Below, piece by piece: positions 25,667 through 60,167 of a stretch of DNA of 63,784 nt. The notes below the pieces were generated by a model. It searched no databases, was not told where the DNA came from, and worked only from the letters and a program-made list of their open reading frames with translations. The stretch comes from Candidatus Omnitrophota bacterium (GTDB lineage Bacteria; Omnitrophota; Gorgyraeia; Gygaellales; Profunditerraquicolaceae), in the NCBI GenBank assembly GCA_903852325.1, contig CAINQO010000045.1:1-63784 (forward strand), in the 5' to 3' direction. A program made the translations under genes and the position numbers. Every line of letters starts with the position of its first letter. Positions within the stretch are counted from its first letter, which is position 1.

Positions 25667-27109
25667 ATGACCAAAGAATTGACCTTATTCCTAATTATCC
25701 TCATCCCGCTGACCGGGGTGTTTATCCTGCCCTTGATCAGCCGGGTTTCCGCTTCCCTGAGAAATTGGTTCTCTTTCGCGGCGATTCTTTTATCCGCGGT
25801 GTTTTCCTTCCTTTTGATTCCTTCTATATTTAAGGATGGAGCAGTGACGGTGTTTAAGAGCCTGCCTTTCGGGTTTAATCTTGCGTTGACCGCGGATAGC
25901 CTGGCTATTTTTACGGCTGCGGTGGTGTCTTTGATCAGCGCGCTCATCGTATTATTTTCCTTTGATTATATCAGCCACTACAAACACCAGGATGAATATT
26001 ACCCGATGGTGGTTTTGTTCCTGGGGGCGATGATGGGGCTGGTATTCTCCGCGAACCTGATCTTACTCTATATTTTTTGGGAGATTACCGCCATTACCAG
26101 TTGGCGGCTGATCGGGTTTTTCCGGGAGAAAGAGCATGTTTTACGCGCGGATAAGGCGTTTTTGGTTACGGTTTTCGGTTCATTGCTCATGCTGATGGGC
26201 TTCCTGAGGATCTATCAGGAGACCGGCTCTTTCGACCTGTTCACGATAAAAGAAGCGGTCAAGTTGCATCCGATCTCCAATCTTACTATTTCCTTAATTT
26301 TAGCCGGGATACTTTCCAAATCGGCGACCCTTCCTTTTCACACCTGGCTTCCGGATGCCGGCGTGGCTCCTTCTCCGGTAACCGCGCTTTTACATGCGGC
26401 GGTCCTGGTGAAGATAGGAGTTTATGTTTTTGCCAGGATTTTTGTCGCCACGATCCCCTTAAATCTGCCCTGGCAGACTATTGTCGCGGTGATTGCCGGG
26501 GCCAGCGCCCTGGTCTCCGCCGGAGCAGCCCTGGTGGACACGGACTTAAAAAGGATAATTGCTTATTCGACGGTCAGCCAGATCGGTTTTATCTTCCTGG
26601 GCTTTTCCCTGGGTAATGAAATCGGCGTTGCCGGAGGGGTTTTGTATATTTTGATGCACGGTTTGGCCAAAGCCGGGCTTTTCTTATGCGCCGGCATAAT
26701 CGAACAAAACGCAAAAACCAAAGATGTGCGCCATCTTGGCGGGTTATTTTCTTCCATGCCGATAACCGGAATTTCCTTCTTGTTTTGCGCTTTTTCCGTG
26801 ATGGCGATTCCTCCTTTCGGGGGATTTTTCAGCAAATATATGATCATCTCCGGAACATTCCAGGCCGGGCACCGGATTATCGCCACGGTATTCTTGTTCG
26901 GGGCATTTTTAACGGTCCTGTATCTTTTCCGGGCTTTTAATCTGGTGTTTATGGGCGAGAAAAAAAGCCCGTCTACGGTTGCAGGAGAAGGCTCCCGGCT
27001 GATGCTGGCTTGCGTGGCGGCCTTCGCTTTATTATCTTTACTCGGCGGTATTTTTATCCGGTTCCCCAGCGCGCTGGCTTTAATCACGGCGCAAAAAATG
27101 CTTTTATAA
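25667..27109 (+). CDS. antiporter-like membrane subunit (NuoN/MrpD family) of group 4 [NiFe] hydrogenase
   Basis: 480 aa; proton-conducting membrane transporter motifs (SKSATLPFHTWLPDA, LLHAAVLVKIG). Confidence 0.85.
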   Translation: MTKELTLFLIILIPLTGVFILPLISRVSASLRNWFSFAAILLSAVFSFLLIPSIFKDGAVTVFKSLPFGFNLALTADSLAIFTAAVVSLISALIVLFSFDYISHYKHQDEYYPMVVLFLGAMMGLVFSANLILLYIFWEITAITSWRLIGFFREKEHVLRADKAFLVTVFGSLLMLMGFLRIYQETGSFDLFTIKEAVKLHPISNLTISLILAGILSKSATLPFHTWLPDAGVAPSPVTALLHAAVLVKIGVYVFARIFVATIPLNLPWQTIVAVIAGASALVSAGAALVDTDLKRIIAYSTVSQIGFIFLGFSLGNEIGVAGGVLYILMHGLAKAGLFLCAGIIEQNAKTKDVRHLGGLFSSMPITGISFLFCAFSVMAIPPFGGFFSKYMIISGTFQAGHRIIATVFLFGAFLTVLYLFRAFNLVFMGEKKSPSTVAGEGSRLMLACVAAFALLSLLGGIFIRFPSALALITAQKMLL

Positions 27110-27110
27110 A

Positions 27111-28928
27111 ATGCAAACTTCCTTAATCGTATTTATCTTTATGCCGTTTGTCCTGGGACTGGCGGCTTTTCTGCTGCCTAAAGCGGCGCGCGGAATTTTA
27201 GTTCTGGCGGCGGCAGTGGCTAACTTTTTGTTCGCCGTTTCCATATTCCACAAAGAAGCGATGATCACCATCCCCTGGGCAGGGGCGGGGATGGATTTTT
27301 CACTGCGTTTAAATCAATTCAGCGGATTTATCCTTTTGGCTGCCGCGTTTTTCAGTTTGCTTATCGTGATTTATTCCCTCAGTTTCTTTAAAGGAAAAGA
27401 TAACGCCAAACAATTTTATTTGTATTTATTGATTTCTCTTTCCCTGGTTAACGGGGCGGTCTTGGCGAATAACCTGATCCTGCTGCTTTTCTTTTGGGAA
27501 GGGTTGCTTTTGACTTTGTTCGGCTTGATCGCCATCGGAGGGAGAATGGCATTTAAAACCGCCACCAAAGCCTTCCTTATCGTGGGAGTATCCGACCTGT
27601 GCCTGATGGCCGGGATCGCCCTCACCGGTTACCTGGCGAAAACCCTGGTCATCTCCGAGATCCATCTTTCCCTGGGAGGATTAGGCAGCCTGGCGTTTAT
27701 ACTTTTGGCGATCGGAGCGGTTTCCAAGGCCGGATCAATGCCTTTTCACAGCTGGATCCCCGACGCGGCAGAGGATGCCCCGCTTCCGTTTATGGCTTTT
27801 TTACCGGCTTCCCTGGAAAAACTGCTGGGGATTTATTTCCTTGCCCGGATCAGCCTGGAGATGTTCAAGCTTGAGCCGGAATCCTGGTTGAGCGTTTTTT
27901 TGATGATCCTCGGGGCGGCAACTATATTTTTGGCGGTAATGATGGCGCTGGTCCAGAAGAATTACAAAAAATTACTTTCCTATCACGCGATCAGCCAGGT
28001 GGGTTATATGGTCCTGGGGATCGGAACCGCTATCCCCATCGGGATTGTCGGCGGGCTTTTCCATATGCTTAACCACGCTTTATATAAAAGCTGCCTTTTT
28101 TTAACTGCCGGCAGCGTAGAAAAACAAGCCGGGGCCACAGACCTGGAAAAACTCGGGGGCTTAGGCAGGAAAATGCCTCTGACTTTTGCGGCCTTTACCG
28201 TGGCGGCGCTTTCTATCTCCGGGGTACCGCCGTTTAACGGGTTTTTCTCCAAAGAAATGGTTTATCATGCGGCCATGGAAAGAGGGATGATCTTTTATGT
28301 CGTGGCGGTAGTCGGAGCTTTTCTGACCGCCGCTTCTTTTTTAAAATTAGGGCACAGCGCTTTCCTGGGAAAGATCCATCAGGAGCACAAGGCCGTCAAA
28401 GAAGCGCCGGCGGCAATGCTTGTGCCGATGGCGGTGCTGGCGTCAACCTGTATTATTTTCGGGATTTTTAATTATTTACCGCTGAATAATTTTATCCAGC
28501 CGATTTTGGGGGCCAGGTTAGCCGGCAGGAGCTTCGCGGGTTTTTCCGCCAACTGGTTCCTGGTGATCATCACTCTTTTGGTTTTAACCGCGGCCCTGGT
28601 GCACCACCTTTTAGCGGTGCGGTTTTCCGGGAGCGCGCTTAAGGCTGCCGACCATATCCACCATGCCCCGGGACTTTCCGCATTATACCGCTGGGCCGGA
28701 AAAAAATATTTTGACCCCTATGTGGTCGGGCTTAAAATTATTGACGGCCTAACTTTGGTGCTTTTTAAGATCGACCGGGGGATCGATTGGATATACAGTT
28801 CTTTGGTTACGCGCCTGGCTTTGAATTTTTCCAAAATGATCCGTAAAATGCATACCGGTTATTACGCGGTATATATTTCCTGGTCCCTTTTAGGCGCGGT
28901 AATTGTCATGTTTTTTATGTTCAAGTAA
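27111..28928 (+). CDS. antiporter-like membrane subunit (NuoL/MrpA-like)
   Basis: 605 aa; SKAGSMPFHSWIPDA motif; C-terminal extension. Confidence 0.85.
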   Translation: MQTSLIVFIFMPFVLGLAAFLLPKAARGILVLAAAVANFLFAVSIFHKEAMITIPWAGAGMDFSLRLNQFSGFILLAAAFFSLLIVIYSLSFFKGKDNAKQFYLYLLISLSLVNGAVLANNLILLLFFWEGLLLTLFGLIAIGGRMAFKTATKAFLIVGVSDLCLMAGIALTGYLAKTLVISEIHLSLGGLGSLAFILLAIGAVSKAGSMPFHSWIPDAAEDAPLPFMAFLPASLEKLLGIYFLARISLEMFKLEPESWLSVFLMILGAATIFLAVMMALVQKNYKKLLSYHAISQVGYMVLGIGTAIPIGIVGGLFHMLNHALYKSCLFLTAGSVEKQAGATDLEKLGGLGRKMPLTFAAFTVAALSISGVPPFNGFFSKEMVYHAAMERGMIFYVVAVVGAFLTAASFLKLGHSAFLGKIHQEHKAVKEAPAAMLVPMAVLASTCIIFGIFNYLPLNNFIQPILGARLAGRSFAGFSANWFLVIITLLVLTAALVHHLLAVRFSGSALKAADHIHHAPGLSALYRWAGKKYFDPYVVGLKIIDGLTLVLFKIDRGIDWIYSSLVTRLALNFSKMIRKMHTGYYAVYISWSLLGAVIVMFFMFK

Positions 28929-28958
28929 ACTCTTTCTTAATATAAGGAAAAAGAAGTC

Positions 28959-30383
28959 ATGCTTTCATTATTTATTCTGGCCCCGCTTTTTTTATTATTC
29001 GTTTTAAACCTGCCTTTAAAGCCGGTAAATAAAGCCTGCTTTTGGCTGGCCGGGGTTTTATTGTCCGCGCAAATATTAATGGCGCTGGGGCATGCTTTGT
29101 GCCCCTGGAGCCTTTATCCGGACAAGCTGGGTTTATTTTTTGTTTTTAACCTGGTGATGGATAATTTGACCCTGGTGATGCTTCTGGTCATCGGGATCGT
29201 TTCCCTGGTTGCGCTTTTTGTCGGTAAAAGCACCATCATTCTGGAAGAACAAAGGTTTAATTTTGTCAGCCTGGTGCTGGCCTGCGTTATCGGAATGAAC
29301 GCGGTGGTGCTGGTCAGAGATATCTTTTCTCTGTATATTTTTATCGAAATTACTTCCATCGCTTCTTTTGTCCTCATTGCCCTGAAAAAAGATAAGCTGG
29401 CGATCGAAGGCACCTTTAAATATCTCATCATGTCGGCGGTGGCTACCGTATTTATGCTTTGTGCCATGGCTTTTTTACTGTTGGCCGCCGGAGACCTGTC
29501 TTTTGCCGCCGTGCACAGCGCTTTTTATAACCCGGCAAATGCCGGATTGCTTAAATGCGGAGCGGGTTTATTTTTGTGCGGCCTGTTGATTAAATCGGGA
29601 GTGGCCCCTTTCCACGGATGGGTGCCGGATGCTTATTCTTCGGCGCCGGCAGGGGTCTCGATCCTCCTGGCCGGGATAACTACCAAGGTCGCCGGGGTTT
29701 ATGTGTTACTGCGGCTTTTCGGTTCGGTATTTATCCTGAACGCGCAATTCCAGAACATTCTTTTATTCGCCGGAGCGTTCTCCATTGTTATGGCGGCGCT
29801 GGCCGCTTTAACCCAGGATGATTTTAAGCGGATGCTTGCATATTCAAGCATCAGCCAGGTCGGCTACATTATCCTGGCTTTGGGCTGCGGCACCCCGCTG
29901 GCTTTTGCCGGAGCGATATTCCATTTCTTTAACCACGCTATTTTTAAATCACTGCTTTTTGTCAACGCCGCGTCTTTGGAAAAAGAATTCGGTTCGACCA
30001 ATATGAATACCTTAGCCGGCCTGGGGAATAAATCTCCGGTAACCGGTTTTACTTCCCTGATCGGAGCGCTCTCTACCGCCGGTATTCCGCCTTTTTCCGG
30101 CTTCTGGAGCAAGCTGATCATTATCCTGGCTCTTTTTAGCGCGGGCAGGTTCGTTTACGGGGGGATTGCCCTGTTAGCCAGCATTCTGACCCTGGCTTAT
30201 TTTCTGGCCTTCCAGCGCCGGGTTTTCTTCGGGAAAACCGAGTCTACTTTAAGCAGCGCGGGAACATCCTGGGCCTTGCGGTTCTGGGAAATCGCGCTGG
30301 CGTTAATCACCGCCGCCAGCGGAGCGGTCTTTGTTTTAGTGCACAATAACTGGGTATTGCCTTTAAAGGCGATCTTTTGGTAA
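28959..30383 (+). CDS. antiporter-like membrane subunit (NuoM/MrpD family)
   Basis: 474 aa; KSGVAPFHGWVPDAY motif. Confidence 0.85.
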   Translation: MLSLFILAPLFLLFVLNLPLKPVNKACFWLAGVLLSAQILMALGHALCPWSLYPDKLGLFFVFNLVMDNLTLVMLLVIGIVSLVALFVGKSTIILEEQRFNFVSLVLACVIGMNAVVLVRDIFSLYIFIEITSIASFVLIALKKDKLAIEGTFKYLIMSAVATVFMLCAMAFLLLAAGDLSFAAVHSAFYNPANAGLLKCGAGLFLCGLLIKSGVAPFHGWVPDAYSSAPAGVSILLAGITTKVAGVYVLLRLFGSVFILNAQFQNILLFAGAFSIVMAALAALTQDDFKRMLAYSSISQVGYIILALGCGTPLAFAGAIFHFFNHAIFKSLLFVNAASLEKEFGSTNMNTLAGLGNKSPVTGFTSLIGALSTAGIPPFSGFWSKLIIILALFSAGRFVYGGIALLASILTLAYFLAFQRRVFFGKTESTLSSAGTSWALRFWEIALALITAASGAVFVLVHNNWVLPLKAIFW

Positions 30384-30384
30384 A

Positions 30385-30870
30385 ATGCTTATAAATTTAA
30401 TTCTTCTTTTTGCTCTGGTTCTTGCGGCGCTCTGGACGGTAACTACCCCGCGGCTTATCCGCGCTATCGTCGGACTGGCGATTACCAGCGCGATCCTTTC
30501 GGTGATCATGTATCAGCTCAGTTCTCCGCTGGCGGCGGTTTTTGAGCTTTCGGTTTGCTCCGGGCTGATCTCGGTTATCTTTGTCGTGACCATAAGTTTT
30601 ACGCGGCGGGTCAGCAAAGAAGAGCTGCTGGTGCGCCGGAAACAAAAAATCATTAAATACTGGTACCTGCCGGTTATTCTCATCGCCGCCGGATTATTAT
30701 TGAACCATTATTTACTGGCGAATTTAAATTCCTCGGTTTTGCCGGCGCAAGAGGGGGATGTCCGGAACCTGATCTGGAACTCCCGGCACCTGGACCTGTT
30801 CGGCCAGGCGGTCATCCTGTTAGTGGGGGCACTGGGAGTGGTGGTTTTGTTTAAGGAGCCTAAAAAATGA
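30385..30870 (+). CDS. small membrane subunit, MbhD/MnhB-like
   Basis: 161 aa; four or five TM segments; operon position between the antiporter-like and NuoK-like subunits. Confidence 0.55.
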   Translation: MLINLILLFALVLAALWTVTTPRLIRAIVGLAITSAILSVIMYQLSSPLAAVFELSVCSGLISVIFVVTISFTRRVSKEELLVRRKQKIIKYWYLPVILIAAGLLLNHYLLANLNSSVLPAQEGDVRNLIWNSRHLDLFGQAVILLVGALGVVVLFKEPKK

Positions 30871-31187
30871 GCGCGCCTTCAATGTATCTCTTTGTATTTT
30901 TCGGGATCTTTTCCGCCCTGCTTTTAATTACCGGCATTTATTGCATGCTGGTAAGTTTTAATCTGATCCGCATAATTATCGGATTTGAAATTCTGGTTAA
31001 AGCGGCAACACTTTTGATCATTTCCGCCGGGTATGCCTGCGGGAAAAGCGCCCTGGCGCAGGTGATGGTGATCACGCTGATCGTCATCGAGATCGTGGTG
31101 ATGGTGGTCGCCGGAGGGGTGGCGCTTTGGGCATTCAGGCACAATGATAATATCGATCCCAGGGAACTGGGCAACTTGAAAGGTTAA
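30867..31187 (+). CDS. NuoK/MnhC-like membrane subunit
   Basis: 106 aa; three TM segments with a conserved membrane glutamate context (IIGFEILVKAATLLI). Confidence 0.7.
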   Translation: MSAPSMYLFVFFGIFSALLLITGIYCMLVSFNLIRIIIGFEILVKAATLLIISAGYACGKSALAQVMVITLIVIEIVVMVVAGGVALWAFRHNDNIDPRELGNLKG

Positions 31188-31188
31188 G

Positions 31189-31524
31189 ATGCTGCAAGAG
31201 ATCCTGCTTTCTCCTCCGGGAGCTTTTATCGTGATCCTTATGGCGGTAACTATCGCCGCCAGGTTCCTGGGCAAATTTGCCTCCGGCAAACGCAGCGACC
31301 AGGGTGATTCCAAAAAGGCGTATGCCTGCGGGGAGGATTTCCAGGGAAGCGTGATCCAGCCGGATTACAGCCAATTTTTTCCGTTCGCTTTTTTCTTTAC
31401 TATTTTACACGTGGTGGCGCTGGTGATCGCCACGGTGCCCGCCGAAACTGCGGGGATGCTGGCCATGGCGCTGGTTTATGTGTTTGCCGCGGTCATCGGC
31501 CTTTTAATTTTACTAAGGAAATAA
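31189..31524 (+). CDS. small membrane subunit, NuoA/MbhI-like
   Basis: 111 aa; YACGED motif resembling the NuoA YECG loop, flanked by TM helices. Confidence 0.5.
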   Translation: MLQEILLSPPGAFIVILMAVTIAARFLGKFASGKRSDQGDSKKAYACGEDFQGSVIQPDYSQFFPFAFFFTILHVVALVIATVPAETAGMLAMALVYVFAAVIGLLILLRK

Positions 31525-31525
31525 C

Positions 31526-31984
31526 ATGGGAATGATTTCTAAAATAATCAACTGGTCGCGCCTTAAATCACCCTGGGTTTTGCATTTTAATACCGGCGCC
31601 TGCAACGCCTGCGATATCGAGATCATTGCCGCCCTTACCCCCAGTTATGATCTGGAACGTTTCGGGGTAGTGCTCAAAGCTACTCCGCGCCACGCCGATG
31701 TGCTTTTGTGCTCCGGCCCGGTGACCAAGCAGATCGAAAGCCGGTTGGTGCGGATATACGAACAGATGCCTGAGCCCAAATTCGTGGTGGCCATCGGCAG
31801 CTGCGCCTGCAGCGGAGGCGTGTTTAATGGCTGTTATAACGTGGCCGGGGGAATAAATTCGGTGATCCCGGTTTCCGCGTATATCCCGGGTTGCCCGGCC
31901 AGCCCCAAAGCGATCATTGACGGGGTGGTGAAACTTTTGCGCAGCCTGGAAACAAAAGAACGTAAATCCGGAGGCAAAAAATGA
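31526..31984 (+). CDS. [NiFe] hydrogenase small subunit (NuoB-like)
   Basis: 152 aa; Fe-S cysteines CNACDIE, GSCACSGG, IPGCP. Confidence 0.9.
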   Translation: MGMISKIINWSRLKSPWVLHFNTGACNACDIEIIAALTPSYDLERFGVVLKATPRHADVLLCSGPVTKQIESRLVRIYEQMPEPKFVVAIGSCACSGGVFNGCYNVAGGINSVIPVSAYIPGCPASPKAIIDGVVKLLRSLETKERKSGGKK

Positions 31985-32451
31985 ATGAAGAACAGATAAA
32001 GCAGGAATTGGAAGATAAATTTTCTTTCCTTAAAGACGCGGTCAGTATTACACGCAAGGGGCGGATTTTCGCGCAGGTCCCCTTGGATAAATTCGAAGCG
32101 GTATTTGCCCACGCGCTGAAGAAGATGAATTTCACGGCGCTTTCGGCGGTTACCGGGCTTGACCGCGGGGACGGTTTTGAAGTGATCTATCATCTTAACC
32201 GGGATGGGGCAATCGTATTGAATTTAAAAGTACTTTTAGAAAAAGAAAATCCACAGGTAAAAACCATCACTGGTTACTGCCCCAGCGCCGATATTTACGA
32301 AAGGGAGCTGATGGATTTATTAGGGATCAAGGTGGACGGGCTTGCCCCGGGACAGCGTTATCCGCTTTCCGATGACTGGCCCAAGGGAGAGTATCCGTTA
32401 CGCAAGGATTGGAAAGGGCCGACCTCGGCCAAGGAGGCGCAAAATGCATAA
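31981..32451 (+). CDS. NuoC-like (30 kDa) subunit
   Basis: 156 aa; ERELMDLLGIKVDG motif typical of NuoC/HycE N-terminal domains. Confidence 0.85.
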   Translation: MNEEQIKQELEDKFSFLKDAVSITRKGRIFAQVPLDKFEAVFAHALKKMNFTALSAVTGLDRGDGFEVIYHLNRDGAIVLNLKVLLEKENPQVKTITGYCPSADIYERELMDLLGIKVDGLAPGQRYPLSDDWPKGEYPLRKDWKGPTSAKEAQNA

Positions 32452-33679
32452 ATATGGAGATGTAATTGTCCCGATCGGGCCGCAGCATCCGGCATTAAAA
32501 GAACCGGAGAGTTTTTTGATCACTCTGCGCGGAGAGAAAATAACCGCTTCCAGCGTCAGGTTAGGTTATAATCACCGCGGCATTGAAAAGGCCTGCGAGG
32601 AAAGAACTTATACCCAGGGAGTTTACCTGATCGAGCGGGTTTGCGGGATCTGTTCGCATTCCCATTCTACCGCTTTTGTGCAGGCAGTGGAGGAGATCGC
32701 CGGAGTGGAAATCCCGGCGCGCGCTAAATATATCCGCACCCTGATCGCTGAGCTCGAGCGCATCCACAGCCATCTTTTATGGTTAGGGGTGGCCGGGCAT
32801 GAGATCGGTTTTGATACCCTGCTGATGTATACCTGGCGGGACCGGGAAGTAGTGATGGACCTGTTGGCCAAGCTTACCGGTAACCGGGTAAATTACGGGA
32901 TCAATACTATCGGCGGGGTCAGGCGGGATGTCAGCGTTAAGCAAAAAGAAGAAGTTTTAAAAGCGATCGACACGCTGGAAAAACAGACAAAATACTACAT
33001 TGATCTGGCGACAAAAGAAACCACCCTGCTTAAACGTTTACAGGGAGTGGGGGTTTTATCTCACGAAGACGCCATAAGCTTAGGAGCGGTGGGGCCCACC
33101 GGCCGGGCATCAGGGATCGCCCGGGATACGCGTAAAGATGATCCTTACGCGGCCTACGGGGAATTAGATTTTAAAGTGATCAGCGTAGATAACTGCGATG
33201 TTTACGGCCGCACTCTGGTGCGTTTGGGGGAATTGATCGAGTCCTTCAGCCTGGTGCGCCAGGTGATCGCCAAAATCCCGGACGGGCCGATTACCGTCAG
33301 GGTTCCGCGCAAGATCCCGGCGGGAGAGGTGTTGAGCCGCTATGAAGCGCCGCGCGGGGAGGATGTGCATTATGTGCGCTCCAACGGCACGGAAAAACCG
33401 GACCGGGTAAAAGTAAGGGCGCCGACCCTGGCGAATGTGCAGTCGGTTTCCAAAATGCTTGAAGACCGGTACCTGGCGGATATGCCCATCGTGATTGCCG
33501 CCATCGATCCCTGTTTTTCCTGCACCGACAGGTTGATCGCCCTGAGGGATACGCAGACAAAAAAAAGTAATACCGTGATCTGGGAAACGATCCGGCTCAA
33601 AGGGATAGAGTGGTATAAACAGCAGGGGGTAGATTTTACCGCCTTGAATAAAAAATTATCCAAAAAATTACACCTATAA
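32444..33679 (+). CDS. group 4 [NiFe] hydrogenase large subunit (NuoD-like)
   Basis: Both Ni-Fe ligand motifs are present: RVCGICSHSH near the N-terminus and DPCFSCTDR at the C-terminus. AAGGAGG at 32431-32437 favours ATG 32444 over the track start at 32342. Confidence 0.9.
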   Translation: MHKYGDVIVPIGPQHPALKEPESFLITLRGEKITASSVRLGYNHRGIEKACEERTYTQGVYLIERVCGICSHSHSTAFVQAVEEIAGVEIPARAKYIRTLIAELERIHSHLLWLGVAGHEIGFDTLLMYTWRDREVVMDLLAKLTGNRVNYGINTIGGVRRDVSVKQKEEVLKAIDTLEKQTKYYIDLATKETTLLKRLQGVGVLSHEDAISLGAVGPTGRASGIARDTRKDDPYAAYGELDFKVISVDNCDVYGRTLVRLGELIESFSLVRQVIAKIPDGPITVRVPRKIPAGEVLSRYEAPRGEDVHYVRSNGTEKPDRVKVRAPTLANVQSVSKMLEDRYLADMPIVIAAIDPCFSCTDRLIALRDTQTKKSNTVIWETIRLKGIEWYKQQGVDFTALNKKLSKKLHL

Positions 33680-33688
33680 AAGTGCAGA

Positions 33689-33824
33689 TAAACTCTAAAC
33701 TCAAAACACTAAACTCTAAACAAATCCAAAATCCAAAACCTGAAACCCTAAGGTTTCGTTTGGAATTTTGGATTTTGAGTTTTGGGTTTGTTTAGGATTT
33801 AGGGTTTAGGATTTAGGGTTTTTA
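33689..33824 (+). repeat. ~135-nt imperfect long hairpin built from degenerate heptads (copy 1 of a repeat family)
   Basis: A/C-rich arm TAAACTCTAAACTCAAAACACTAAACTCTAAACAAATCCAAAATCCAAAACC, centre GAAACC-ctaa-GGTTTC, G/T-rich arm ...TTTGGGTTTGTTTAGGATTTAGGGTTTAGGATTTAGGGTTT. A homologous copy lies at 60168-60301. Confidence 0.85.
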
Positions 33825-33830
33825 AAAATT

Positions 33831-34772
33831 ATGCTTAAAGCATTATTTCAAATTTTAATCTTTCCGGGAGTGTTGTTTCTCTTTGTCTTCGGCCTTTGCG
33901 GCGAATTTATCGACCGGAAGCTTTGCGCCCGGTTTCAAAACCGGATCGGGCCTCCCTGGTTCCAGCCGCTGGCGGATTTTATTAAGCTGGTCAGTAAAGA
34001 AGAGATTATCCCGGAAGAAGCGGATATCAAAGTGTTTAAGTTGATGCCTGTCTTGGCCCTTACCGCTTCATCGGTCTCTATACTTTATATCCCTACTCTG
34101 GCGGAGAGATCGGCTTTTTCCTTTAACGGGGATGTGATCGTGGTTTTATACCTTTTGACCCTGCCGACATTTACTTACTTTCTCGGGGGCTGGTATTCCC
34201 GGGGGGTTTATTCGATGATCGGAGCGGTGAGAAGCTTGACGCAGCTATTTGCTTATGAGGTGCCGCTCTTTTTAGTTATTTTAGCTTCGGCGTTGTTAGC
34301 CGATACCTGGTCGTTAAGCGGTATGGTCGCTTTTTACAGCCGCCACCTGGGTTACTGGTTTTGCAATATTATCGGGTTTGGCGTGGCCCTGATCTGTTTC
34401 CTGGGCAAGCTGGAGAAGGTCCCTTTCGATATCCCGGAAGCGGAAACCGAGATCGTCGCCGGAAGTTTTACCGAATATAACGGAAGGCTCCTGGCGCTTA
34501 TCCGCACCTCTTTTAATATCGAAATGATCGTCGGGGCGTCTTTGCTGGCGGCGGTGTTTCTGCCGTTCGGCCTTAACCTGTGGCCGGCGCTGATCTTTCC
34601 TTTCTACCTGCTCCAGGTATTGTTTATTATCGTGATCATTACTTTCCTGCGCCTGTTGTTCGCGCGGCTGCGCCTGGACCAGATGATCAGTTTTTGCTGG
34701 CGATTCCTGGCTCCTTTGGCGTTCCTGCAGGTCATTCTTAACCTGATTTTTAAGGCGGTGCTCCCAAGATGA
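33831..34772 (+). CDS. NuoH-like membrane subunit (HyfC/MbhM/EchB-like)
   Basis: 313 aa; RIGPPWFQPLADFIKL motif typical of NuoH family. Confidence 0.88.
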   Translation: MLKALFQILIFPGVLFLFVFGLCGEFIDRKLCARFQNRIGPPWFQPLADFIKLVSKEEIIPEEADIKVFKLMPVLALTASSVSILYIPTLAERSAFSFNGDVIVVLYLLTLPTFTYFLGGWYSRGVYSMIGAVRSLTQLFAYEVPLFLVILASALLADTWSLSGMVAFYSRHLGYWFCNIIGFGVALICFLGKLEKVPFDIPEAETEIVAGSFTEYNGRLLALIRTSFNIEMIVGASLLAAVFLPFGLNLWPALIFPFYLLQVLFIIVIITFLRLLFARLRLDQMISFCWRFLAPLAFLQVILNLIFKAVLPR

Positions 34773-35146
34773 AAAGGCCCGGTAAGATCGCAAAGCTGCT
34801 GATAAAGACATTTTTTAAAAAACCGATCACCGGGAATTATCCGGCGGACGGCTCGGGAATGCCGGAGGGTTTCCGGGGAAAGTTAAAATTCAATCCTTCC
34901 GCCTGCATCGGCTGTAAAATGTGCATGCGCGACTGCCCTTCGGGGGCAATCGAGATCAGAAAGACCGGGGAGAAACAATTTGAGGCGGAAGTTAATTTAG
35001 CCAGATGTATCTATTGCGGCCAATGCGTAGATTCCTGCCTGAAAAAAGCCCTGGAAATCACCGCCGACTTTGAACTTGCCAAGCTGGATCCCGCCCAGCT
35101 TAAGGTTATCCTGAATGCCGCAAATAAAGAACAGCCTAAAGCATAA
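34769..35146 (+). CDS. 2x[4Fe-4S] ferredoxin subunit (NuoI-like)
   Basis: CIGCKMCMRDCP and CIYCGQCVDSC cluster motifs. Confidence 0.88.
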   Translation: MKRPGKIAKLLIKTFFKKPITGNYPADGSGMPEGFRGKLKFNPSACIGCKMCMRDCPSGAIEIRKTGEKQFEAEVNLARCIYCGQCVDSCLKKALEITADFELAKLDPAQLKVILNAANKEQPKA

Positions 35147-35618
35147 TCTTAGAACAGCCAAAAAGATCGCCATCCTGGGCGTCGGTTCGCCGCTGCGCGC
35201 CGATGACGCCGCCGGCCTGATCATTTGCGGAAAACTTAAAAAAATTTTCAAGGAAAACAAAAAAAAAGGGCGGGTCAGGGTTTTTCTGGGAGAGACCGCT
35301 CCGGAGAATCTCACCGGCCAGATAAAAAAATTCAAGCCTACACATCTTCTGGTGATCGACGCAGTTGACCTGGGCCTGGCTACCGGAACGGTGAAGATGG
35401 TCAATCTGTGCGCCGAGGACCGGGTTTCTTTTTCCACCCACCGGGTCCCGGTCGGGATACTCCGGGATTACCTGCACCAGTCTATCGGCTGCGAAACTTT
35501 TCTGCTGGGGATCCAGCCCGGGTCTACGGAATTTTGCGGGAAGGTGTCGGCGCAGATCCATAAATCTTCCGCAGCCGCCTGTAAAGAAATAGCCCAAGCG
35601 CTTAAGGATTTTATTTAA
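35115..35618 (+). CDS. hydrogenase maturation endopeptidase (HycI/HyaD family)
   Basis: IAILGVGSPLRADDAAG N-terminal motif; LLVIDAVD; STHRVP. Confidence 0.8.
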   Translation: MPQIKNSLKHNLRTAKKIAILGVGSPLRADDAAGLIICGKLKKIFKENKKKGRVRVFLGETAPENLTGQIKKFKPTHLLVIDAVDLGLATGTVKMVNLCAEDRVSFSTHRVPVGILRDYLHQSIGCETFLLGIQPGSTEFCGKVSAQIHKSSAAACKEIAQALKDFI

Positions 35619-35716
35619 TCCCCGGTTGGAAATCCTTGGGTTTTACCCGGAGGATTTCCTGAGGGGGAGGAAGCCCGGACTTTAGTCCAGGGGCTTCGCA
35701 GACAAAGGAAACAGTT

Positions 35717-37012
35717 ATGTGTTATACCATACCGGCTTTGGTGGAGGAGGTGCGTAAGGGGGTCGCCACGATCTCATATTTCGGCGAGCGCAAGCAGGCC
35801 TACTGCGAATTCGTCAAGCTTTCTCCCGGGGATTACATCTACGCGCAGGGCGGTTACGTGGTCGAAAAAATCTCACCCGCGCAGGCGCAAAAAACCCTGA
35901 AAGCCTGGAAAGATGTTTTTTTCCAGCTAAGGAAACTGGATGCCGAGTCGGCGGCGTTAAAAGCTAATGACAACAGCTCCGACCTTAAATTGCAGCGGAT
36001 CCTGGAGAAAGCGCGGAATAGCGGCAAGCTTTCTAAAGCGGAAGCGCTGTTCCTTTTGAGGCTTAAAGACCCGCAGGCGCAATTCTTGCTGCGGCGTACC
36101 GCTAATTACCTGCGGCAAAAGTTCCACAATAATTCCTGCTGCGTGCACGGGATCCTGGAAATATCCAATATTTGCGTCAGGCAATGCGCTTATTGCGGGA
36201 TCTCCGCCCCCAGCGGCCCGGTGCGGTACCGGATGAGTGTCGGGGAAATAATCGCGGCGGCCGGGGAGGCAGTGAATAAATTCGGTTTTAAATCCCTGGT
36301 TCTGCAATCGGGGGAAGGGTGCGGTTATACGGTCGAAGAGCTGGCAGAGATCGTCAAAAAGATAAGGCAGCGGTTTCCCGTGCTTATTTTTATCAGTTTC
36401 GGGGAGGTCGGCATCCCGGGATTGCGTAAGCTGTATGCCGCAGGCGCCCGCGGGCTTTTGCTGCGCTTTGAAACTTCTAATCCGGCGCTTTATAAAAAGA
36501 TTCATCCCGGAGATACTCTGGATTCCCGGATCAAGCATTTACAAGCCGCTTACCGGATGGGATACTTGATCATCACCGGCGGACTGATCGGGCTTCCCGG
36601 ATCCACGGAAGCAGATTCAGTGAATGATATCAATCTGGCGGCCTCCCTGCACGCGGAAATGCTGAGTTTCGGCCCGTTTTTACCGCATCCGTTCACCCCT
36701 CTGGCTAAGCACCCGGCGCCTTCCGAAGAAGCAGTGCTGGGGGTTTTGGCTCTGGCCAGGATAATCTTTCCGGCCAAAACAAAAATCCTGATCACTACCG
36801 CTTATGAAACGCTTTCTCCGCAAGCCAGGCAGAATGGTTTGATTTCCGGGGGCAATTCGATCATGATCAATGTCACCCCTTTAAAATACCGTTCCCTCTA
36901 TACGATTTACCCTCACCGTGCCCACGCCGATCAAACCGTCGCCCAGCAGGTCCGGGAAGCGCTGGCCATGCTTAAATCCTTCGGGCGCGGACCGACGGAT
37001 TTGGGAAATTAA
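35717..37012 (+). CDS. HypC-like domain fused to a HydE/BioB-like radical SAM enzyme
   Basis: Residues 1-70 start MCYTIPALVEEV...GDYIYAQGGYVVEKI (HypC MCxxIP signature). The rest is colinear with the HydE at 50792 (CVRQCAYCG, YRM, VLQSGEG, FETSNPALYKKIHPG, LIGLPGS, GPFLPHP, NVTPLKYRSLYTIYP). Confidence 0.8.
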   Translation: MCYTIPALVEEVRKGVATISYFGERKQAYCEFVKLSPGDYIYAQGGYVVEKISPAQAQKTLKAWKDVFFQLRKLDAESAALKANDNSSDLKLQRILEKARNSGKLSKAEALFLLRLKDPQAQFLLRRTANYLRQKFHNNSCCVHGILEISNICVRQCAYCGISAPSGPVRYRMSVGEIIAAAGEAVNKFGFKSLVLQSGEGCGYTVEELAEIVKKIRQRFPVLIFISFGEVGIPGLRKLYAAGARGLLLRFETSNPALYKKIHPGDTLDSRIKHLQAAYRMGYLIITGGLIGLPGSTEADSVNDINLAASLHAEMLSFGPFLPHPFTPLAKHPAPSEEAVLGVLALARIIFPAKTKILITTAYETLSPQARQNGLISGGNSIMINVTPLKYRSLYTIYPHRAHADQTVAQQVREALAMLKSFGRGPTDLGN

Positions 37013-37036: not shown

Positions 37037-37064
37037 TTGACAAGTAAACAATTTATGATAGCAT
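37037..37064 (+). promoter_or_regulatory. candidate promoter of the atp operon
   Basis: TTGACA (37037-37042), 16-nt spacer, TGa-TAGCAT (37059-37064). Confidence 0.45.
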
Positions 37065-45063: not shown

Positions 45064-45064
45064 A

Positions 45065-45418: not shown

Positions 45419-45424
45419 ATTAAA

Positions 45425-47164: not shown

Positions 47165-47168
47165 TTAA

Positions 47169-48914
47169 ATGGTTAAAGGAAAGATCAATAATATAGCGGT
47201 GGAGGTGGATGAGGGGGTATCCATTCTGGACGCGGCTAAAAAAGCCCAGATCAAGATCCCCACCCTTTGTAAGCACCCGGACCTGCCTCCCGGCGCCGGA
47301 TGCGGTCTATGCATTATCAGGATCAAGGGGACGCCGAAAATGCTGCGCGCCTGCTGTACGCCGTTAGAGGAGGGGATGGAGATCACTACCCATGACCCGG
47401 AGATCGTTGCGGTGCGCCGCACCGTGCTGGAATTGATCCTTTCCAACCACCCGAATGACTGCCTGCAGTGCGGCAGGAACAACAACTGCGAGTTACAGAC
47501 GCTGGTAGCGGATTTCGGCATCCGCCAGGAGTCTTTTCAGAAATTCCTGCCGGATGTGCCCAAGGATGATTCTACCCGCACGATCGTGCTTGACCCGCAG
47601 AAATGTATCCGCTGCGGAAGATGCGTTAAAGTCTGCCAGGAGATGCAGAATGTTTGGGCGCTTTCATTTTTGGAGAGAGGTTTTTGCACCCGGATTTCCC
47701 CGGCCGGAGATATAAAGCTGGCGGATTCTCCCTGCATCCGCTGCGGCCAATGCTCTAACCATTGCCCGACCGGTTCGATCGTGGAGCTGGATGAGACGGC
47801 AAGGGTTTGGGAATTATTGCAGGACCAGGATAAACATTGCGTGGTCCAGATCGCTCCGGCAGTCAGGGTAGCGATCGGGGAAGCTTTCGGCTATCCTTTG
47901 GGAACGAACTTAACCAAGAAACTTTACGCTTTACTTCGCCGGCTGGGATTTAAAGCGGTTTTCGATACGAATTTCGGCGCCGACGTGACGATCATGGAGG
48001 AGGCCAATGAATTTATCCAAAGGTTGCAGAAGGGTAAGGGCCACCTTCCCTTGATCACTTCCTGCTGCCCGGGTTGGGTGGATTTTATGGAAAAATTCCA
48101 TCCGGACATGATCGATCATTTTTCCAGCTGTAAATCCCCGCATGAAATCGTCGGGGTTTTATCCAAGACCTATTACGCGGAAAAGAATAATATCGATCCT
48201 AAAAAGATCGTGGTAGTTTCGATCATGCCTTGCACGGCGAAGAAGAATGAGATCATCCGCAGTGAAGAGATGTATGCTTCCGGCAGCCAGGATGTGGATG
48301 TGGCGCTGACTACCCGGGAATTAGCCAGAATGATCAAGCAGGCGGGGATAGATTTTGTAAATCTGCCGGATGAAAACCCGGATCATTTATTGGGGGATTA
48401 TACCGGAGCCGGGGTAATTTTCGGAGCAACCGGAGGGGTAATGGAGGCGGCATTAAGGACCGCTTACTTTTTACTTAACGGCAAAAACATGGAAAAGGTC
48501 GAGTTGAACCAGATTCGCGGCCTGGACGGGGTGAAAGTTTCCGAGATCCCGATCAACGGTAAAAGGATCCGCGTCGCGGTTGCCCACGGTTTAAATCACG
48601 TGGAGTATGTGTTGGACCAGGTCAGGGAAGCGGAAAAAAATAATAAAGAGATGCCTTTTCATTTTATCGAAGTCATGGCCTGCCTGGGCGGATGTGTCGG
48701 CGGCGGCGGGCAGCCTTACGGGGTAACCGATGAGCTGCGGGCAAAACGCGCCGCGGGAATTTATCAGGATGATAAAAGCTCTAAACAGCGCTGTTCACAT
48801 GAAAATCCTTTTGTGCAGCAGCTGTATAAGGAATTTTTAGGGGCGCCTTTAAGCGAGAAAGCGGAACACCTGCTGCATACGCATTACCATGCGCGGCCGG
48901 TTTACGCTAAATAA
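47169..48914 (+). CDS. hydA: [FeFe] hydrogenase catalytic subunit
   Basis: 581 aa; N-terminal 2Fe-2S and 4Fe-4S domains; H-cluster motifs TSCCPGW, MPCTAKKNE, EVMACLGGCVGGGGQP. Confidence 0.95.
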   Translation: MVKGKINNIAVEVDEGVSILDAAKKAQIKIPTLCKHPDLPPGAGCGLCIIRIKGTPKMLRACCTPLEEGMEITTHDPEIVAVRRTVLELILSNHPNDCLQCGRNNNCELQTLVADFGIRQESFQKFLPDVPKDDSTRTIVLDPQKCIRCGRCVKVCQEMQNVWALSFLERGFCTRISPAGDIKLADSPCIRCGQCSNHCPTGSIVELDETARVWELLQDQDKHCVVQIAPAVRVAIGEAFGYPLGTNLTKKLYALLRRLGFKAVFDTNFGADVTIMEEANEFIQRLQKGKGHLPLITSCCPGWVDFMEKFHPDMIDHFSSCKSPHEIVGVLSKTYYAEKNNIDPKKIVVVSIMPCTAKKNEIIRSEEMYASGSQDVDVALTTRELARMIKQAGIDFVNLPDENPDHLLGDYTGAGVIFGATGGVMEAALRTAYFLLNGKNMEKVELNQIRGLDGVKVSEIPINGKRIRVAVAHGLNHVEYVLDQVREAEKNNKEMPFHFIEVMACLGGCVGGGGQPYGVTDELRAKRAAGIYQDDKSSKQRCSHENPFVQQLYKEFLGAPLSEKAEHLLHTHYHARPVYAK

Positions 48915-48997
48915 ATTAATCCTGCGCTAAAACGCGCAGCAATATATTCCTGCGGTAAGGAGCTTTGGCTCTGAATCCAAGGGGGATAATAATTTAG

Positions 48998-49419: not shown

Positions 49420-50805
49420 ATGAAATATATAAATGCGGAAAAGATAAATAATTTATTGACGGATGCGGCTAAATTTGACCGTCGCCGATTAGATCAAATT
49501 TTGGACAAAGCCAGGTCGCTTAAACGTTTGACGCTTGCGGAGTCTGCGGCGTTATTGTCCGTTAAGGATCCGCAGGACCTCCAGAAAATATTCGCCGCCG
49601 CCAGCTTCGTTAAAGATGCGATTTACGGCAGGAGGGTAGTATTGTTTGCTCCGCTTTATATCAGCAATCTGTGCGCGAATAACTGTCTTTATTGCGCGTT
49701 TAAGGCGGATAATCTGGCGCTTAAGCGTAAAGCGCTGGCTATCCCGGAGATCGGAGAGCAAGCCGAATGGCTGCTCAAGCGCGGGCACAAAAGGATACTC
49801 ATGGTGTGCGGAGAAAAGGCTCCCGCAGGCAAATCCGGGGTCAGCTATTATACGGAAGCGGTGCAAGCCATATACAGCGCCGGAAGCGGTAAGGATAAAA
49901 TTAAAAGGGTCAATATTAATTGCGCGCCTTTAAGTATCGATGAATTTAAACAGCTTAAGGCCAGCGGCATCGGGACTTATCAGATATTTCAGGAGACTTA
50001 TCACGAACAGACTTACCGCCTCATGCATCCGTCCGGCCCCAAAAGCGATCCGGATAACCGGATTACCGCGGTTGACCGCGCCTTTAAAGCCGGGATCGAC
50101 GATATCGGGATCGGAGCGCTTTTTGGTTTATACGATTACCGTTTTGAAACTTTGGGCCTCTTGAGCCATGTCGAGCATATGGAAGAGGAGTTTAAGGTCG
50201 GCCCGCACACAATTTCGGTGCCGCGGATTGAACCGGCAGAGGGTTCCTTGATATCGCTTAATCCTCCCTGTAAAATTACCGATGAGGAATTTAAAAAAAT
50301 AGTCGCGGTCCTAAGGCTCAGCGTGCCTTATACCGGGATCATTATGTCTACCCGGGAGAACCCGGCTTTGCGGGACAGCCTGCTGAGCCTGGGGGTTTCC
50401 CAGGTCAGCGCTGGATCCAATACCTCTCCGGGAGGATATTCCGCGGCCAGGGCCGCAGCCGGAGGGCAATTTTCTTTAGGGGACACCCGCAGCCTGGATG
50501 AGATCGTGGGAACCCTTATTGCCCATGATTACATTCCCAGCTTTTGCGCCGCCTGCTACCGCATGGAGCGGACCGGGGAAAGTTTTATGGAACTGGCCCG
50601 GCCCGGAACCATTAAAGGTAAATGCAATATGAATGCCTTGATCACCTTGCAGGAGTATCTGTATGATTTCGCCTCCGCGCCCGTTAAGGCCGCCGGGCAA
50701 AAGATGATCGACCGTTATTTTAAGGCGCTGGCGCCTGCGGACCAGGAAAAGCTTAAGATTTTTTTTGCGCACGTAGCGCAAGGTAAAAGGGATGAGTATG
50801 TCTAA
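49420..50805 (+). CDS. hydG: [FeFe] hydrogenase maturase HydG (radical SAM)
   Basis: 461 aa; CANNCLYCAF radical SAM motif; C-terminal cysteines (FCAACYR, GKCNMN). Confidence 0.92.
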   Translation: MKYINAEKINNLLTDAAKFDRRRLDQILDKARSLKRLTLAESAALLSVKDPQDLQKIFAAASFVKDAIYGRRVVLFAPLYISNLCANNCLYCAFKADNLALKRKALAIPEIGEQAEWLLKRGHKRILMVCGEKAPAGKSGVSYYTEAVQAIYSAGSGKDKIKRVNINCAPLSIDEFKQLKASGIGTYQIFQETYHEQTYRLMHPSGPKSDPDNRITAVDRAFKAGIDDIGIGALFGLYDYRFETLGLLSHVEHMEEEFKVGPHTISVPRIEPAEGSLISLNPPCKITDEEFKKIVAVLRLSVPYTGIIMSTRENPALRDSLLSLGVSQVSAGSNTSPGGYSAARAAAGGQFSLGDTRSLDEIVGTLIAHDYIPSFCAACYRMERTGESFMELARPGTIKGKCNMNALITLQEYLYDFASAPVKAAGQKMIDRYFKALAPADQEKLKIFFAHVAQGKRDEYV

Positions 50806-51862
50806 GCCCGAGGATATTTTAAACCGGATCTATGATCAGGCCTTGCCGGAACCGGCTGACCTGGAGCAGGCCTTGTCCTGGGATAAACCGCAGGAGCTTG
50901 AGCGGTTATTTAATTTTGCCGATACGGTAAGAAAAGAATACTGCGGGGACGGGATCATCCCGCGCGGAATAATCGAATTTTCCAATTTTTGCGATAAGGA
51001 GTGCTCTTATTGCGGTTTAAATAAAAATAACCGCAAGCTTGGCCGCTACCGGATGAAAGCAGAGGAGGTGCTCAAAAGCGCCGGTCATTTATTTTCTTGC
51101 GGGATCAGGACGGTGGTTTTGCAATCCGGGGAAGACCCGGGGAGCGATGTTTCCTGGCTGGCGGAGATGATCAAACAGATAAAATCGCAGTTTGCTCTAA
51201 GCATTACCCTTTGCGTCGGAGAGCGTCCTTTCCAGGATTACCGGCGGTGGAAGGATGCCGGCGCGGACCGGTATCTTTTAAAAATAGAGACTTCTGATAA
51301 GGAATTATACCGGCAAATGCATCCGGGAATGAGCTTTGAGCAGAGGATCGGTTGTTTGGATGCTTTGCGCGAATCAGGGTACCAGGTGGGTTCGGGAAAT
51401 ATCGTGGGATTACCCGGCCAGAGCCGGGAAAGCCTTGCCCGGGACATTTTGTTTTTTAAACAGAATAATTTTGACATGATCGGTATCGGCCCGTTTATCG
51501 CGCATCAGGAAACCCGGCTGGCCGGCCAGCCCAAAGGCCAGGCGCTGCTTACTTTAAAAGTGCTGGCGCTGGCCCGGATTGCTACCCGCAACGCGCATTT
51601 ACCGGCGACCACGGCTTTGGGCAGCCTGGGAGAAGATTACCGGCAGGAGGGTTTAAAGTGCGGAGCCAATGTTTTAATGCCGAATTTTACCCCGCTTCCC
51701 TACCGCAAGCTTTATGAGATCTATCCGGATAAAAAATGCGTCAATGAACCGGTGGGCGCCTGCAATTTCTGCATGGAGCAGATGGCCAAACAGATCAACC
51801 GGTTCATCGATTATACTAAAGGCGATTCTTTAAAATTCAAAGGAGTAACGTTAAATGTATAG
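50792..51862 (+). CDS. hydE: [FeFe] hydrogenase maturase HydE (radical SAM)
   Basis: 356 aa; CDKECSYCG motif; BioB-like fold motifs. Confidence 0.9.
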   Translation: MSMSKPEDILNRIYDQALPEPADLEQALSWDKPQELERLFNFADTVRKEYCGDGIIPRGIIEFSNFCDKECSYCGLNKNNRKLGRYRMKAEEVLKSAGHLFSCGIRTVVLQSGEDPGSDVSWLAEMIKQIKSQFALSITLCVGERPFQDYRRWKDAGADRYLLKIETSDKELYRQMHPGMSFEQRIGCLDALRESGYQVGSGNIVGLPGQSRESLARDILFFKQNNFDMIGIGPFIAHQETRLAGQPKGQALLTLKVLALARIATRNAHLPATTALGSLGEDYRQEGLKCGANVLMPNFTPLPYRKLYEIYPDKKCVNEPVGACNFCMEQMAKQINRFIDYTKGDSLKFKGVTLNV

Positions 51863-60164: not shown

Positions 60165-60167
60165 TGT

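Follow-up and report, generated by a model that had tools for sequence, protein, structure and literature searches.

The window analysed here is a stretch of 63,784 nucleotides from a Candidatus Omnitrophota bacterium (contig CAINQO010000045.1). At positions 35717-37012 of its forward strand, it encodes a protein in which a module of the [NiFe]-hydrogenase chaperone HypC is joined to a radical S-adenosylmethionine (SAM) domain resembling HydE, a maturase of [FeFe] hydrogenases. Conserved and set within a [NiFe] hydrogenase context, this fusion between a HypC module and a distinct HydE paralogue is composed as follows:

35717..37012, + strand: HypC-HydE-like fusion gene, a single open reading frame (ORF) of 431 aa plus stop and the last gene of the [NiFe] hydrogenase operon
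35717..35929, + strand: HypC module, residues 1-71, with the N-terminus MCYTIP, Cys2 (35720-35722), Pro6, and Gln44 in place of HypC His51
35930..36004, + strand: linker of ~25 residues (72-96), variable in the family alignment; the match to the HydE hidden Markov model (HMM) begins at residue 97
36005..37009, + strand: HydE-like radical SAM domain, residues 97-431, matched by TIGR03956 (below its cut-off), phmmer and Foldseek
36137..36148, + strand: clade-specific motif C141-C142-V143-H144, in which Cys142 and His144 replace His52 and Arg54 of Thermotoga maritima HydE (TmHydE); invariant in the family alignment
36173..36196, + strand: radical SAM cluster motif C153-x3-C157-x2-C160, invariant and aligned with TmHydE C63, C67 and C70
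36659..36661, + strand: Met315, equivalent to TmHydE Met224 and kept in 34/34 fused domains
36863..36865, + strand: Met383, equivalent to TmHydE Met291 (second Fe(I) site) and kept in 34/34 fused domains

The ORF starts with ATG, is preceded by an AGGA ribosome-binding site 8 nt upstream, and runs uninterrupted, without a frameshift. The same full-length fused ORF is found in 117 independent loci, which rules out a frameshift or an assembly artefact as its source. Together with more than 120 clusters at 90% identity, these loci put the fusion well beyond chance or assembly error.

Profile searches recovered both halves of the protein. The Pfam family HupF_HypC (PF01455) matches residues 1-64 with 45.8 bits against a gathering threshold of 28.5 and covers the whole 65-position profile, and the N-terminal part also matches the solved HypC structures 2z1c (E = 4e-6) and 3vyr in the PDB. 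Pfam Radical_SAM matches residues 148-305 with 51.4 bits, accompanied by a weak match to BATS. In NCBIfam, the HypC/HybG/HupF model TIGR00074 scores the window protein at 34.5 bits, below its cut-off of 48, which is exceeded by some relatives, such as P0132 (53.7 bits) and P0134 (50.7 bits). The best NCBIfam match of the fusion is HydE (TIGR03956; 207.7 bits, residues 97-421), yet it misses the equivalog cut-off of 254.6 bits, whereas the canonical HydE encoded in the same window (50792-51862) lies above it with 325.8 bits. Matches to PylB (120.5 bits; cut-off 348.2), BioB (83.9; 225) and HmdB (TIGR03957; 69.3; 320.9) all fall below their respective cut-offs. The fusion and the canonical HydE of the window share 36% identity across 297 aa (E = 2e-59), and in a phmmer search of solved structures, the C-terminal part matched TmHydE with E = 2e-52.

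An AlphaFold2 model, built from 22 family members, reached a mean predicted local distance difference test score (pLDDT) of 91.6 and a predicted template modelling score (pTM) of 0.91. It shows a five-stranded barrel and a helix, followed by an alpha/beta barrel. The HypC module comprises strands at residues 7-13, 16-21, 24-29, 40-44 and 47-52 and a helix at 54-79, with pLDDT values of 86-95. In Foldseek, the closest match was TmHydE (7o1p, 3cix), with a target TM score (TMt) of 0.96, a root-mean-square deviation of 1.6 Å and 34% identity; PylB followed with 0.85. A sequence-only reading of the window had described a single gene with a HypC N-terminus, identified by its MCYTIP start, and a HydE-like remainder. 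These results bear it out on the gene, on the HypC module and on the likeness to HydE, but not as far as membership in HydE proper is concerned, given the missed equivalog cut-off and the distinct clade and altered residues described below.

In TmHydE, M224 and M291 hold the Fe(I)(CO)2(CN)S intermediates, R54, T134, R155 and T269 contact the CN ligand, and K309 participates in the radical relay (PMC11826987). We compared these positions in an alignment of 149 HydE-type domains, of which 34 were HypC-fused and 114 were canonical HydE. All 34 fused domains keep the cluster cysteines as well as V105, Q107, S136, L157, R159, E161, M224 and M291 (TmHydE numbering). At other positions they depart from HydE: H52 is replaced by Cys and R54 by His in 34/34, T134 by Phe in 31/34, and R155 by Gly or Ala in 34/34, whereas canonical HydE has R54 in 102, T134 in 100 and R155 in 98 of 114 sequences. 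Of the four residues that contact CN in HydE, T269 alone is thereby retained and three are replaced, and an invariant Cys/His pair is gained (34/34). In the numbering of the window protein, the altered and retained sites are C142, H144, F225, G246, M315 and M383. In a neighbour-joining tree, the fused domains and three unfused sequences with the same signature formed a clade of 37 (bootstrap 54/100); one further signature-bearing sequence branched just outside, and both TmHydE and the HydE of the window also lay outside. Judged by its sequence, the fused radical SAM domain is a distinct HydE paralogue clade, referred to as HydE' in the following, and not HydE proper.

The fusion is widespread. 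Searches of databases clustered at 90% and 50% identity returned the same architecture in more than 120 clusters at 90% and in ~20 representatives at 50% identity, and when one genome per GTDB species was scanned with sequence patterns, the closer form turned up in at least 386 species-level genomes, along with 279 relatives that belong to a more divergent set. The family alignment A1, 22 proteins at 53-78% identity, has ~120 invariant positions, among them the cysteines of the cluster and the residues for SAM and Fe(I). Of the first 80 loci of the closer form, about two-thirds bear the label Omnitrophota, although labels derived from metagenome-assembled genomes (MAGs) may be imprecise. The remaining loci and the divergent set include Margulisiibacteriota/WOR-1/Saganbacteria, Elusimicrobia, Brevinematales, Nitrospirae and Thermodesulfobacteriota, as well as the candidate phyla radiation (CPR; Falkow-, Sacchari-, Parcu- and Buchananbacteria) and DPANN archaea (Micrarchaeota, Woesearchaeota).

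Besides the double fusion, the family includes true HypC-HydE'-HydG triple fusions, namely P0122 (906 aa), L091 = P0134 (881 aa, Falkowbacteria; ORF at 10001-12643) and L025 (922 aa), the last of which is encoded on a closed Omnitrophota chromosome (CP070797.1). Conversely, the split pairs L110 and L134 have a separate HypC gene of 77-78 aa directly 5' of the HydE' gene. In six DPANN loci (L093, L100, L105, L106, L114, L115), the double fusion is followed immediately by HydG. The source databases name these proteins 'biotin synthase', 'radical SAM protein', 'HydE' or 'HypC', and no curated NCBIfam model captures the fusion protein.

To characterize its genomic context, ~10 kb were read on each side of the fusion in 126 non-redundant loci (~2 Mb in total). 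Neighbours were detected with window-derived probes and then by unbiased clustering of all ORFs, which recovered the subunits of group 3b hydrogenases. The usual gene order is [NiFe] structural genes, HycI-type protease, short HypA, fusion, (Rex), HydG, and the commonest structural operon encodes a four-gene group 3b enzyme (beta, gamma, delta, alpha), as confirmed with Pfam. The module is tightly linked to two [NiFe] classes, to HycI and to HypA. A same-strand [NiFe] large subunit is encoded in 57 of the 70 loci with at least 3 kb of upstream sequence (group 3b in 37, group 4 in 20), and in 65 of the 80 loci with at least 1 kb, the gene immediately preceding the fusion is that of the protease or of HypA. 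The sequence-only reading had pointed to group 4 hydrogenases as partners. This link holds in the window and in 20 loci, but not as the main one, since group 3b takes that place in 37; an accessory role specific to group 4 was ruled out on the same count. Over all 126 loci, we found the [NiFe] large subunit in 90, the protease in 73, HypA in 55 and HypB in 4, as opposed to HydA in 12 and HydF in 2, so that it is [NiFe] and not [FeFe] enzymes that accompany the fusion.

While hydA and hydF are nearly absent from these neighbourhoods, hypD, hypE and hypF are absent altogether: with E. coli seeds, none of the three was found within ~10 kb on either side in any of the 126 loci (0/126). As a control, we used 32 ordinary loci with a stand-alone hypC, returned by a second scan and drawn from many phyla including archaea and Patescibacteria. 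There, the same seeds detected HypD in 19/32, HypE in 19/32 and HypF in 14/32. The fusion loci in this comparison span many phyla, and the differences are pronounced (Fisher p = 2e-16 for HypD, 2e-16 for HypE and 1e-11 for HypF), although phylogenetic non-independence weakens these p-values.

In the HypC module itself, Cys2 and Pro6 are present in 41/43 fused modules, compared with 34/34 control HypCs, whereas His51 (E. coli numbering) is present in 0/43, with Gln in 35 of them including Gln44 of the window protein, compared with 31/34 controls. On the HypCD scaffold, Cys2 and possibly His51 of HypC, together with Cys41 of HypD, are the iron ligands (PMC12134894). The loss of His51 in 43/43 fused modules therefore argues against a working HypC-HypD complex.

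The module is also linked, and in part fused, to HydG, the commonest downstream neighbour of the fusion. By an ORF-based count, 60 of 89 evaluable loci encode HydG; in 47 it is no more than 2.5 kb away from the fusion, and in 30 it is the direct neighbour or part of the same protein. A probe-based count of 123/126 was discarded as inflated, because the probe also matches the radical SAM domain of the fusion itself. In 11 loci, as in the window, genes for a HydBAC [FeFe] hydrogenase follow downstream after Rex, and in L130, HydA-like genes lie upstream of the fusion. In CPR and DPANN loci, the hydrogenase genes surrounding the module are exclusively [NiFe] genes of group 3b.

Three further observations concern the neighbours. 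Firstly, beside the fusions of 15 loci (L011, at 11968-13467, L053, L025, L023, L032, L050, L054, L061, L064, L072, L080, L084, L089, L109 and L121) we found a HydG variant, which we call type B, in which the canonical C-terminal motif of the auxiliary cluster, CX2CX22C, is rearranged to C-x2-G-x2-C-x5-C-x13-C (SFCTAGYRCGRTGKCIM...KFC). HydA is encoded in 0/15 of these loci and group 4 or group 3b [NiFe] genes in most, and in L025 the variant is part of the 922-aa HypC-HydE'-HydG protein. Type B HydG may make a different Fe-CO/CN product. Secondly, the HypA encoded directly upstream of the fusions is usually truncated to ~81 aa and in 45/59 cases has under 95 aa (e.g. L042, 9663-9908; L011, 9647-9889). 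It starts with the Ni-binding MHE motif and lacks the two CxxC zinc pairs, whereas HypA of the control loci is full length in 10/10 cases (median 113.5 aa), with both pairs. Thirdly, in two control loci from Saccharibacteria/Patescibacteria, L149 and L152, a stand-alone HypC is encoded within or next to a group 3b operon, and neither HypD nor HypE is found in the stretch covered. The HypC gene of L152 is placed between those for the gamma and delta subunits, where L123 and L091 carry the fusion, and the two loci may be intermediates between the two arrangements.

In the window, the following genes and features surround the fusion:

25667..35146, + strand: group-4-type membrane [NiFe] hydrogenase operon, complex-I-like (Pfam)
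32342..33679, + strand: [NiFe] large subunit (Pfam Complex1_49kDa and NiFeSe_Hases)
35115..35618, + strand: HycI-type [NiFe] large-subunit maturation protease (PF01750, 46.9 bits)
37037..37064, + strand: sigma-70-like promoter (TTGACA, 16 nt, TAGCAT, with TG), from a consensus scan and a pattern match only
43931-44557, + strand: Rex (Pfam)
44575-45063, + strand: HydC (Pfam)
45425-47164, + strand: HydB (Pfam)
47169..48914, + strand: HydA, [FeFe] hydrogenase catalytic subunit (Pfam)
49420..50805, + strand: HydG, the sole copy in the window (Radical_SAM and BATS; canonical C-terminal CX2CX22C motif)
50792..51862, + strand: canonical HydE, the paralogue coexisting with the fusion (TIGR03956, 325.8 bits; outside the fused clade)
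51855..53096, + strand: HydF (Pfam HydF_dimer and HydF_tetramer)

The group 4 operon encodes three Mrp/NuoLMN-like subunits together with NuoJ-, NuoA-, NuoB- (small), NuoC-, NuoD- (large), NuoH- and NuoI-like ones. The translated large subunit carries the ligand motifs RVCGICSHSH and DPCFSCTDR with all four Cys ligands, and a cleavable C-terminal extension of ~45 aa. That this operon and its protease precede the fusion, and that no hypDEF genes are found in the window, had both been seen by the sequence-only reading. Pfam supports the former; as for the latter, E. coli HypA, HypB, HypD, HypE and HypF seeds (NC_000913.3) matched nothing within the 63.8 kb, and the Pfam annotation of the remaining ORFs of the window likewise showed no hyp genes, but nitrogen-assimilation genes, NfnAB-like genes, CarAB and others. 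As the putative promoter lies between the stop codon of the fusion and an F-ATPase operon, the fusion can be taken as the gene that closes the hydrogenase operon. The [FeFe] cluster, i.e. the HydABC hydrogenase with HydG, HydE and HydF, spans 44575-53096 and also includes a TM1266-like regulator. Its HydG is presumably the partner that supplies the fusion with Fe-CO/CN, and since its canonical HydE coexists with the fusion, the latter is not the HydE of this organism.

Some further features of the window deserve mention. The large-subunit ORF, as called mechanically, opens at a TTG and overlaps the NuoC-like gene by 110 nt (32342-32451); the ATG at 32444 (Met35) is likely the more plausible start. 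The intergenic region between HycI and the fusion (35619-35716) can form two stable hairpins (-47.6 kcal/mol, z = -3.55) without a T-run. As the closest relatives (L001, L002, L004) do not share these hairpins, we dropped them as a part of the system. Rfam returned zero matches in the window at gathering thresholds. A 617-aa protein (4520-6373) combines an amino-acid-permease-type transporter (~48-506) with a C-terminal P-II nitrogen-regulatory domain (507-611), near two tandem pairs of an ammonium transporter and a small ORF (11898-13520, 13781-15404), a type III glutamine synthetase and a glutamate synthase (GOGAT). The carbamoyl-phosphate synthase large chain at 60311-61972 has only 553 aa, corresponding to the N-terminal half, and is followed by a beta-CASP RNase, which suggests a split carB with its second half elsewhere. 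A 640-aa ORF at 55545-57467, between NfnAB-like genes and an HD-domain protein, has no Pfam match at E <= 1e-5. Finally, all ~50 credible genes of the window lie on the + strand and every 4-kb bin has a positive GC skew, which fits a long leading-strand stretch of co-directional genes.

Given this context, it appears probable that the fusion module is a [NiFe]-hydrogenase maturation device that uses HydG/HydE-type chemistry. That it is linked to two unrelated classes of [NiFe] enzyme, and in bacteria as well as in DPANN archaea, speaks for a role in maturation rather than in the service of one particular enzyme. More tentatively, and with a little more doubt than confidence, we propose a stronger form, in which the module takes the place of HypD/HypE/HypF in making the Fe(CN)2CO unit, the Fe-CO/CN half being built from tyrosine by HydG, HydE' and the tethered HypC in Omnitrophota, CPR, DPANN and other anaerobes.

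The cleavage of tyrosine by HydG and its assembly of an [Fe(Cys)(CO)2(CN)] synthon are established chemistry, as is the delivery of the iron unit to the large subunit by HypC. In the mechanism that we envisage, HydG would carry out its known reaction here as well. HydE' would then bind the synthon and strip off the cysteine backbone by SAM-derived radical chemistry, as HydE does, because it retains the CX3CX2C cluster, Q107, R159, E161 and both Fe(I)-holding methionines. Because its pocket is remodelled (Arg54 to His, His52 to Cys, Thr134 to Phe, Arg155 to Gly), it would keep a mononuclear Fe-CO/CN unit rather than pair two irons into an [FeFe] precursor. This unit would be transferred to Cys2 of the tethered HypC and inserted by HypC into the apo large subunit. 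Lastly, HypA, where encoded, would insert nickel and the HycI-type protease would trim the C-terminal extension; both are encoded directly upstream of the fusion in most loci, and the window has the protease only.

In favour of this maturation role, the substitutions are clade-specific and fall on the very residues that contact CN (PMC11826987), while the Fe(I)-binding methionines are kept. Several points weigh against it. The HydG synthon carries two CO and one CN, the [NiFe] site one CO and two CN, and we identified no ligand-exchange step between the two, although type B HydG, with its rearranged auxiliary-cluster motif, accompanies some of the fusions. The set of HydA, HydE, HydF and HydG is complete in the window, where the one HydG belongs to the [FeFe] cluster 12 kb away. 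Among the 45 loci with at least 9 kb of downstream sequence, 17 have neither HydG nor HydA. With ~10 kb read on each side, hypD, hypE and hypF may sit elsewhere in the genomes; many of the loci come from MAGs with uncertain binning; and at 54/100 in a simple neighbour-joining tree, the support for the fused clade is moderate. The sequence-only reading had left a choice between an alternative radical SAM route to the iron-ligand unit and cross-talk between the two maturation pathways. The former has gained from the neighbouring or fused HydG, the lack of HypD/HypE/HypF nearby and the remodelled pocket; the latter could still apply to the window, where HydG is shared with a complete [FeFe] set.

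The most serious alternative is that the fusion and HydG merely supplement a conventional HypD/HypE/HypF system encoded elsewhere, for instance by supplying CO. The cyanides of [NiFe] hydrogenases derive from carbamoyl phosphate, and under this explanation they would still do so, via HypEF. The synteny with [NiFe] genes fits equally well, the mismatch between two CO/one CN and one CO/two CN vanishes, and the window encodes CarA and CarB (59073-61972). Moreover, HydG makes CO, the anaerobic source of which has been called the most pressing open question of the field (PMC12134894). We nevertheless consider such a supplementary role unlikely. HypD, HypE and HypF are missing within 10 kb of all 126 fusions, across many phyla, though HypA, HypB and the protease were found; His51, which is tied to iron binding on the HypCD scaffold, is lost in all fused modules; and the module is common in the genome-reduced CPR and DPANN, where maintaining both systems would seem costly.

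It is very improbable that the fusion belongs to the maturation of the [FeFe] H-cluster, with the HypC-like module shuttling the HydG synthon to the HydE-type domain and the adjacency to [NiFe] genes reflecting co-regulation by Rex or chance. Admittedly, the closest relatives of the radical SAM domain are HydE, its partner is HydG, and [FeFe] genes accompany the fusion in the window, in the 11 loci with HydBAC after Rex and, upstream, in L130. However, HydA (12/126) and HydF (2/126) are rare next to the [NiFe] large subunit (90), the protease (73) and HypA (55), and the CPR and DPANN loci have group 3b [NiFe] genes alone. In the window, canonical HydE, HydF and HydG already stand beside HydA, so that the fusion would be a surplus paralogue, and the residues that organize the two-iron product of HydE are those that have been replaced. 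Furthermore, we know of no part that HycI or HypA play in [FeFe] maturation.

That the protein is an ordinary HypC chaperone with a radical SAM domain of unrelated or decayed function, e.g. of the BioB, PylB or HmdB type, as source names such as 'biotin synthase' and 'radical SAM protein' and the weaker HMM matches to these families might suggest, is hardly credible in view of its much better match to HydE (207.7 bits against 120.5 for PylB, 83.9 for BioB and 69.3 for HmdB; TMt 0.96 against 0.85 for PylB), the strong constraint on ~120 positions in 22 proteins, cluster, SAM and Fe(I) residues among them, and the conserved partnership or fusion with HydG, which points to Fe-CO/CN chemistry.

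Compared with known systems, the C-terminal part shares with HydE (TmHydE; PDB 3cix, 7o1o; TIGR03956) the full (beta/alpha)8 radical SAM fold, the CX3CX2C cluster, the residues Q107, S136, L157, R159, E161, M224 and M291, and HydG as a partner. By contrast, it scores below the equivalog cut-off, forms a separate clade, has lost three of the four CN-contacting residues and gained an invariant Cys for H52, lacks the cysteines of the second cluster and is joined to HypC; its neighbours are [NiFe] genes, the protease and HypA, and hardly ever HydF or HydA. Similarly, the N-terminal part has the Met-Cys2-x-x-Ile-Pro6 start of HypC/HybG/HupF (PF01455; 2z1c, 3vyr), their OB-fold beta-barrel with a helix, and their gene position adjoining [NiFe] structural and maturation genes. 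Known HypCs, however, are free-standing proteins of ~80-90 aa, whereas the fused module lacks His51 and has no hypD or hypE nearby (0/126 versus 19/32). The protein thus resembles HypC joined to HydE and yet is a full member of neither family, as it fails both the HydE equivalog cut-off and the comparison of CN-contacting residues, and lacks His51 and an association with HypD.

Among the closest precedents for the protein is HydEF of green algae, in which two [FeFe] maturases are joined. This protein and the HydE-HydG fusion P0145 combine maturases of one pathway in one polypeptide, a logic shared with HypC-HydE'-HydG; HypC-HydE', on the other hand, joins a [NiFe] carrier to an [FeFe] enzyme family, and P0145 has no HypC and retains the canonical H52, R54, T134 and R155. 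The aerobic CO synthase HypX, another of the closest precedents, is an accessory enzyme that supplies a diatomic ligand to HypC-bound iron outside HypDEF (PMC12134894), but its fold and chemistry are unrelated, relying on formyl-tetrahydrofolate rather than on radical SAM, and it is linked to oxygen, whereas the fusion occurs in anaerobic lineages. HmdB and HcgA of [Fe]-hydrogenase cofactor synthesis, finally, are radical SAM enzymes of the BioB/HydE superfamily dedicated to a hydrogenase cofactor, but the match is much weaker (TIGR03957, 69.3 bits) and no fusion locus has an hmd/hcg context.

The current view is that all [NiFe] hydrogenases require HypA to HypF. The sequence-only reading knew of no characterized example of the fusion, and full-text searches of PMC and bioRxiv agree, as they returned no account in which HypC is fused to HydE or HydG takes part in [NiFe] maturation, and nothing relevant on missing hyp genes in the fusion-bearing lineages. 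The supplements of PMC8542988 contain no hyp or hyd terms, a 2025 review of [NiFe] cofactor synthesis makes no mention of radical SAM enzymes (PMC12134894), and a 2024 survey of archaeal hydrogenase maturases none of HypC fusions.

The family described here corrects the annotation of proteins that are inconsistently named across sources, and places HydG-type tyrosine-to-CO/CN chemistry inside the [NiFe] gene clusters of hundreds of genomes. If the proposed maturation role is true, it would provide a concrete and testable source of CO, and perhaps of CN, for a large group of anaerobes, and a set of two or three genes for the heterologous production of [NiFe] hydrogenases. Moreover, the supposedly separate maturation pathways of [NiFe] and [FeFe] hydrogenases would share chemistry and, in the stronger form, be linked both mechanistically and evolutionarily, and the genome-reduced CPR and DPANN could mature their group 3b hydrogenases with a compact tool-kit.

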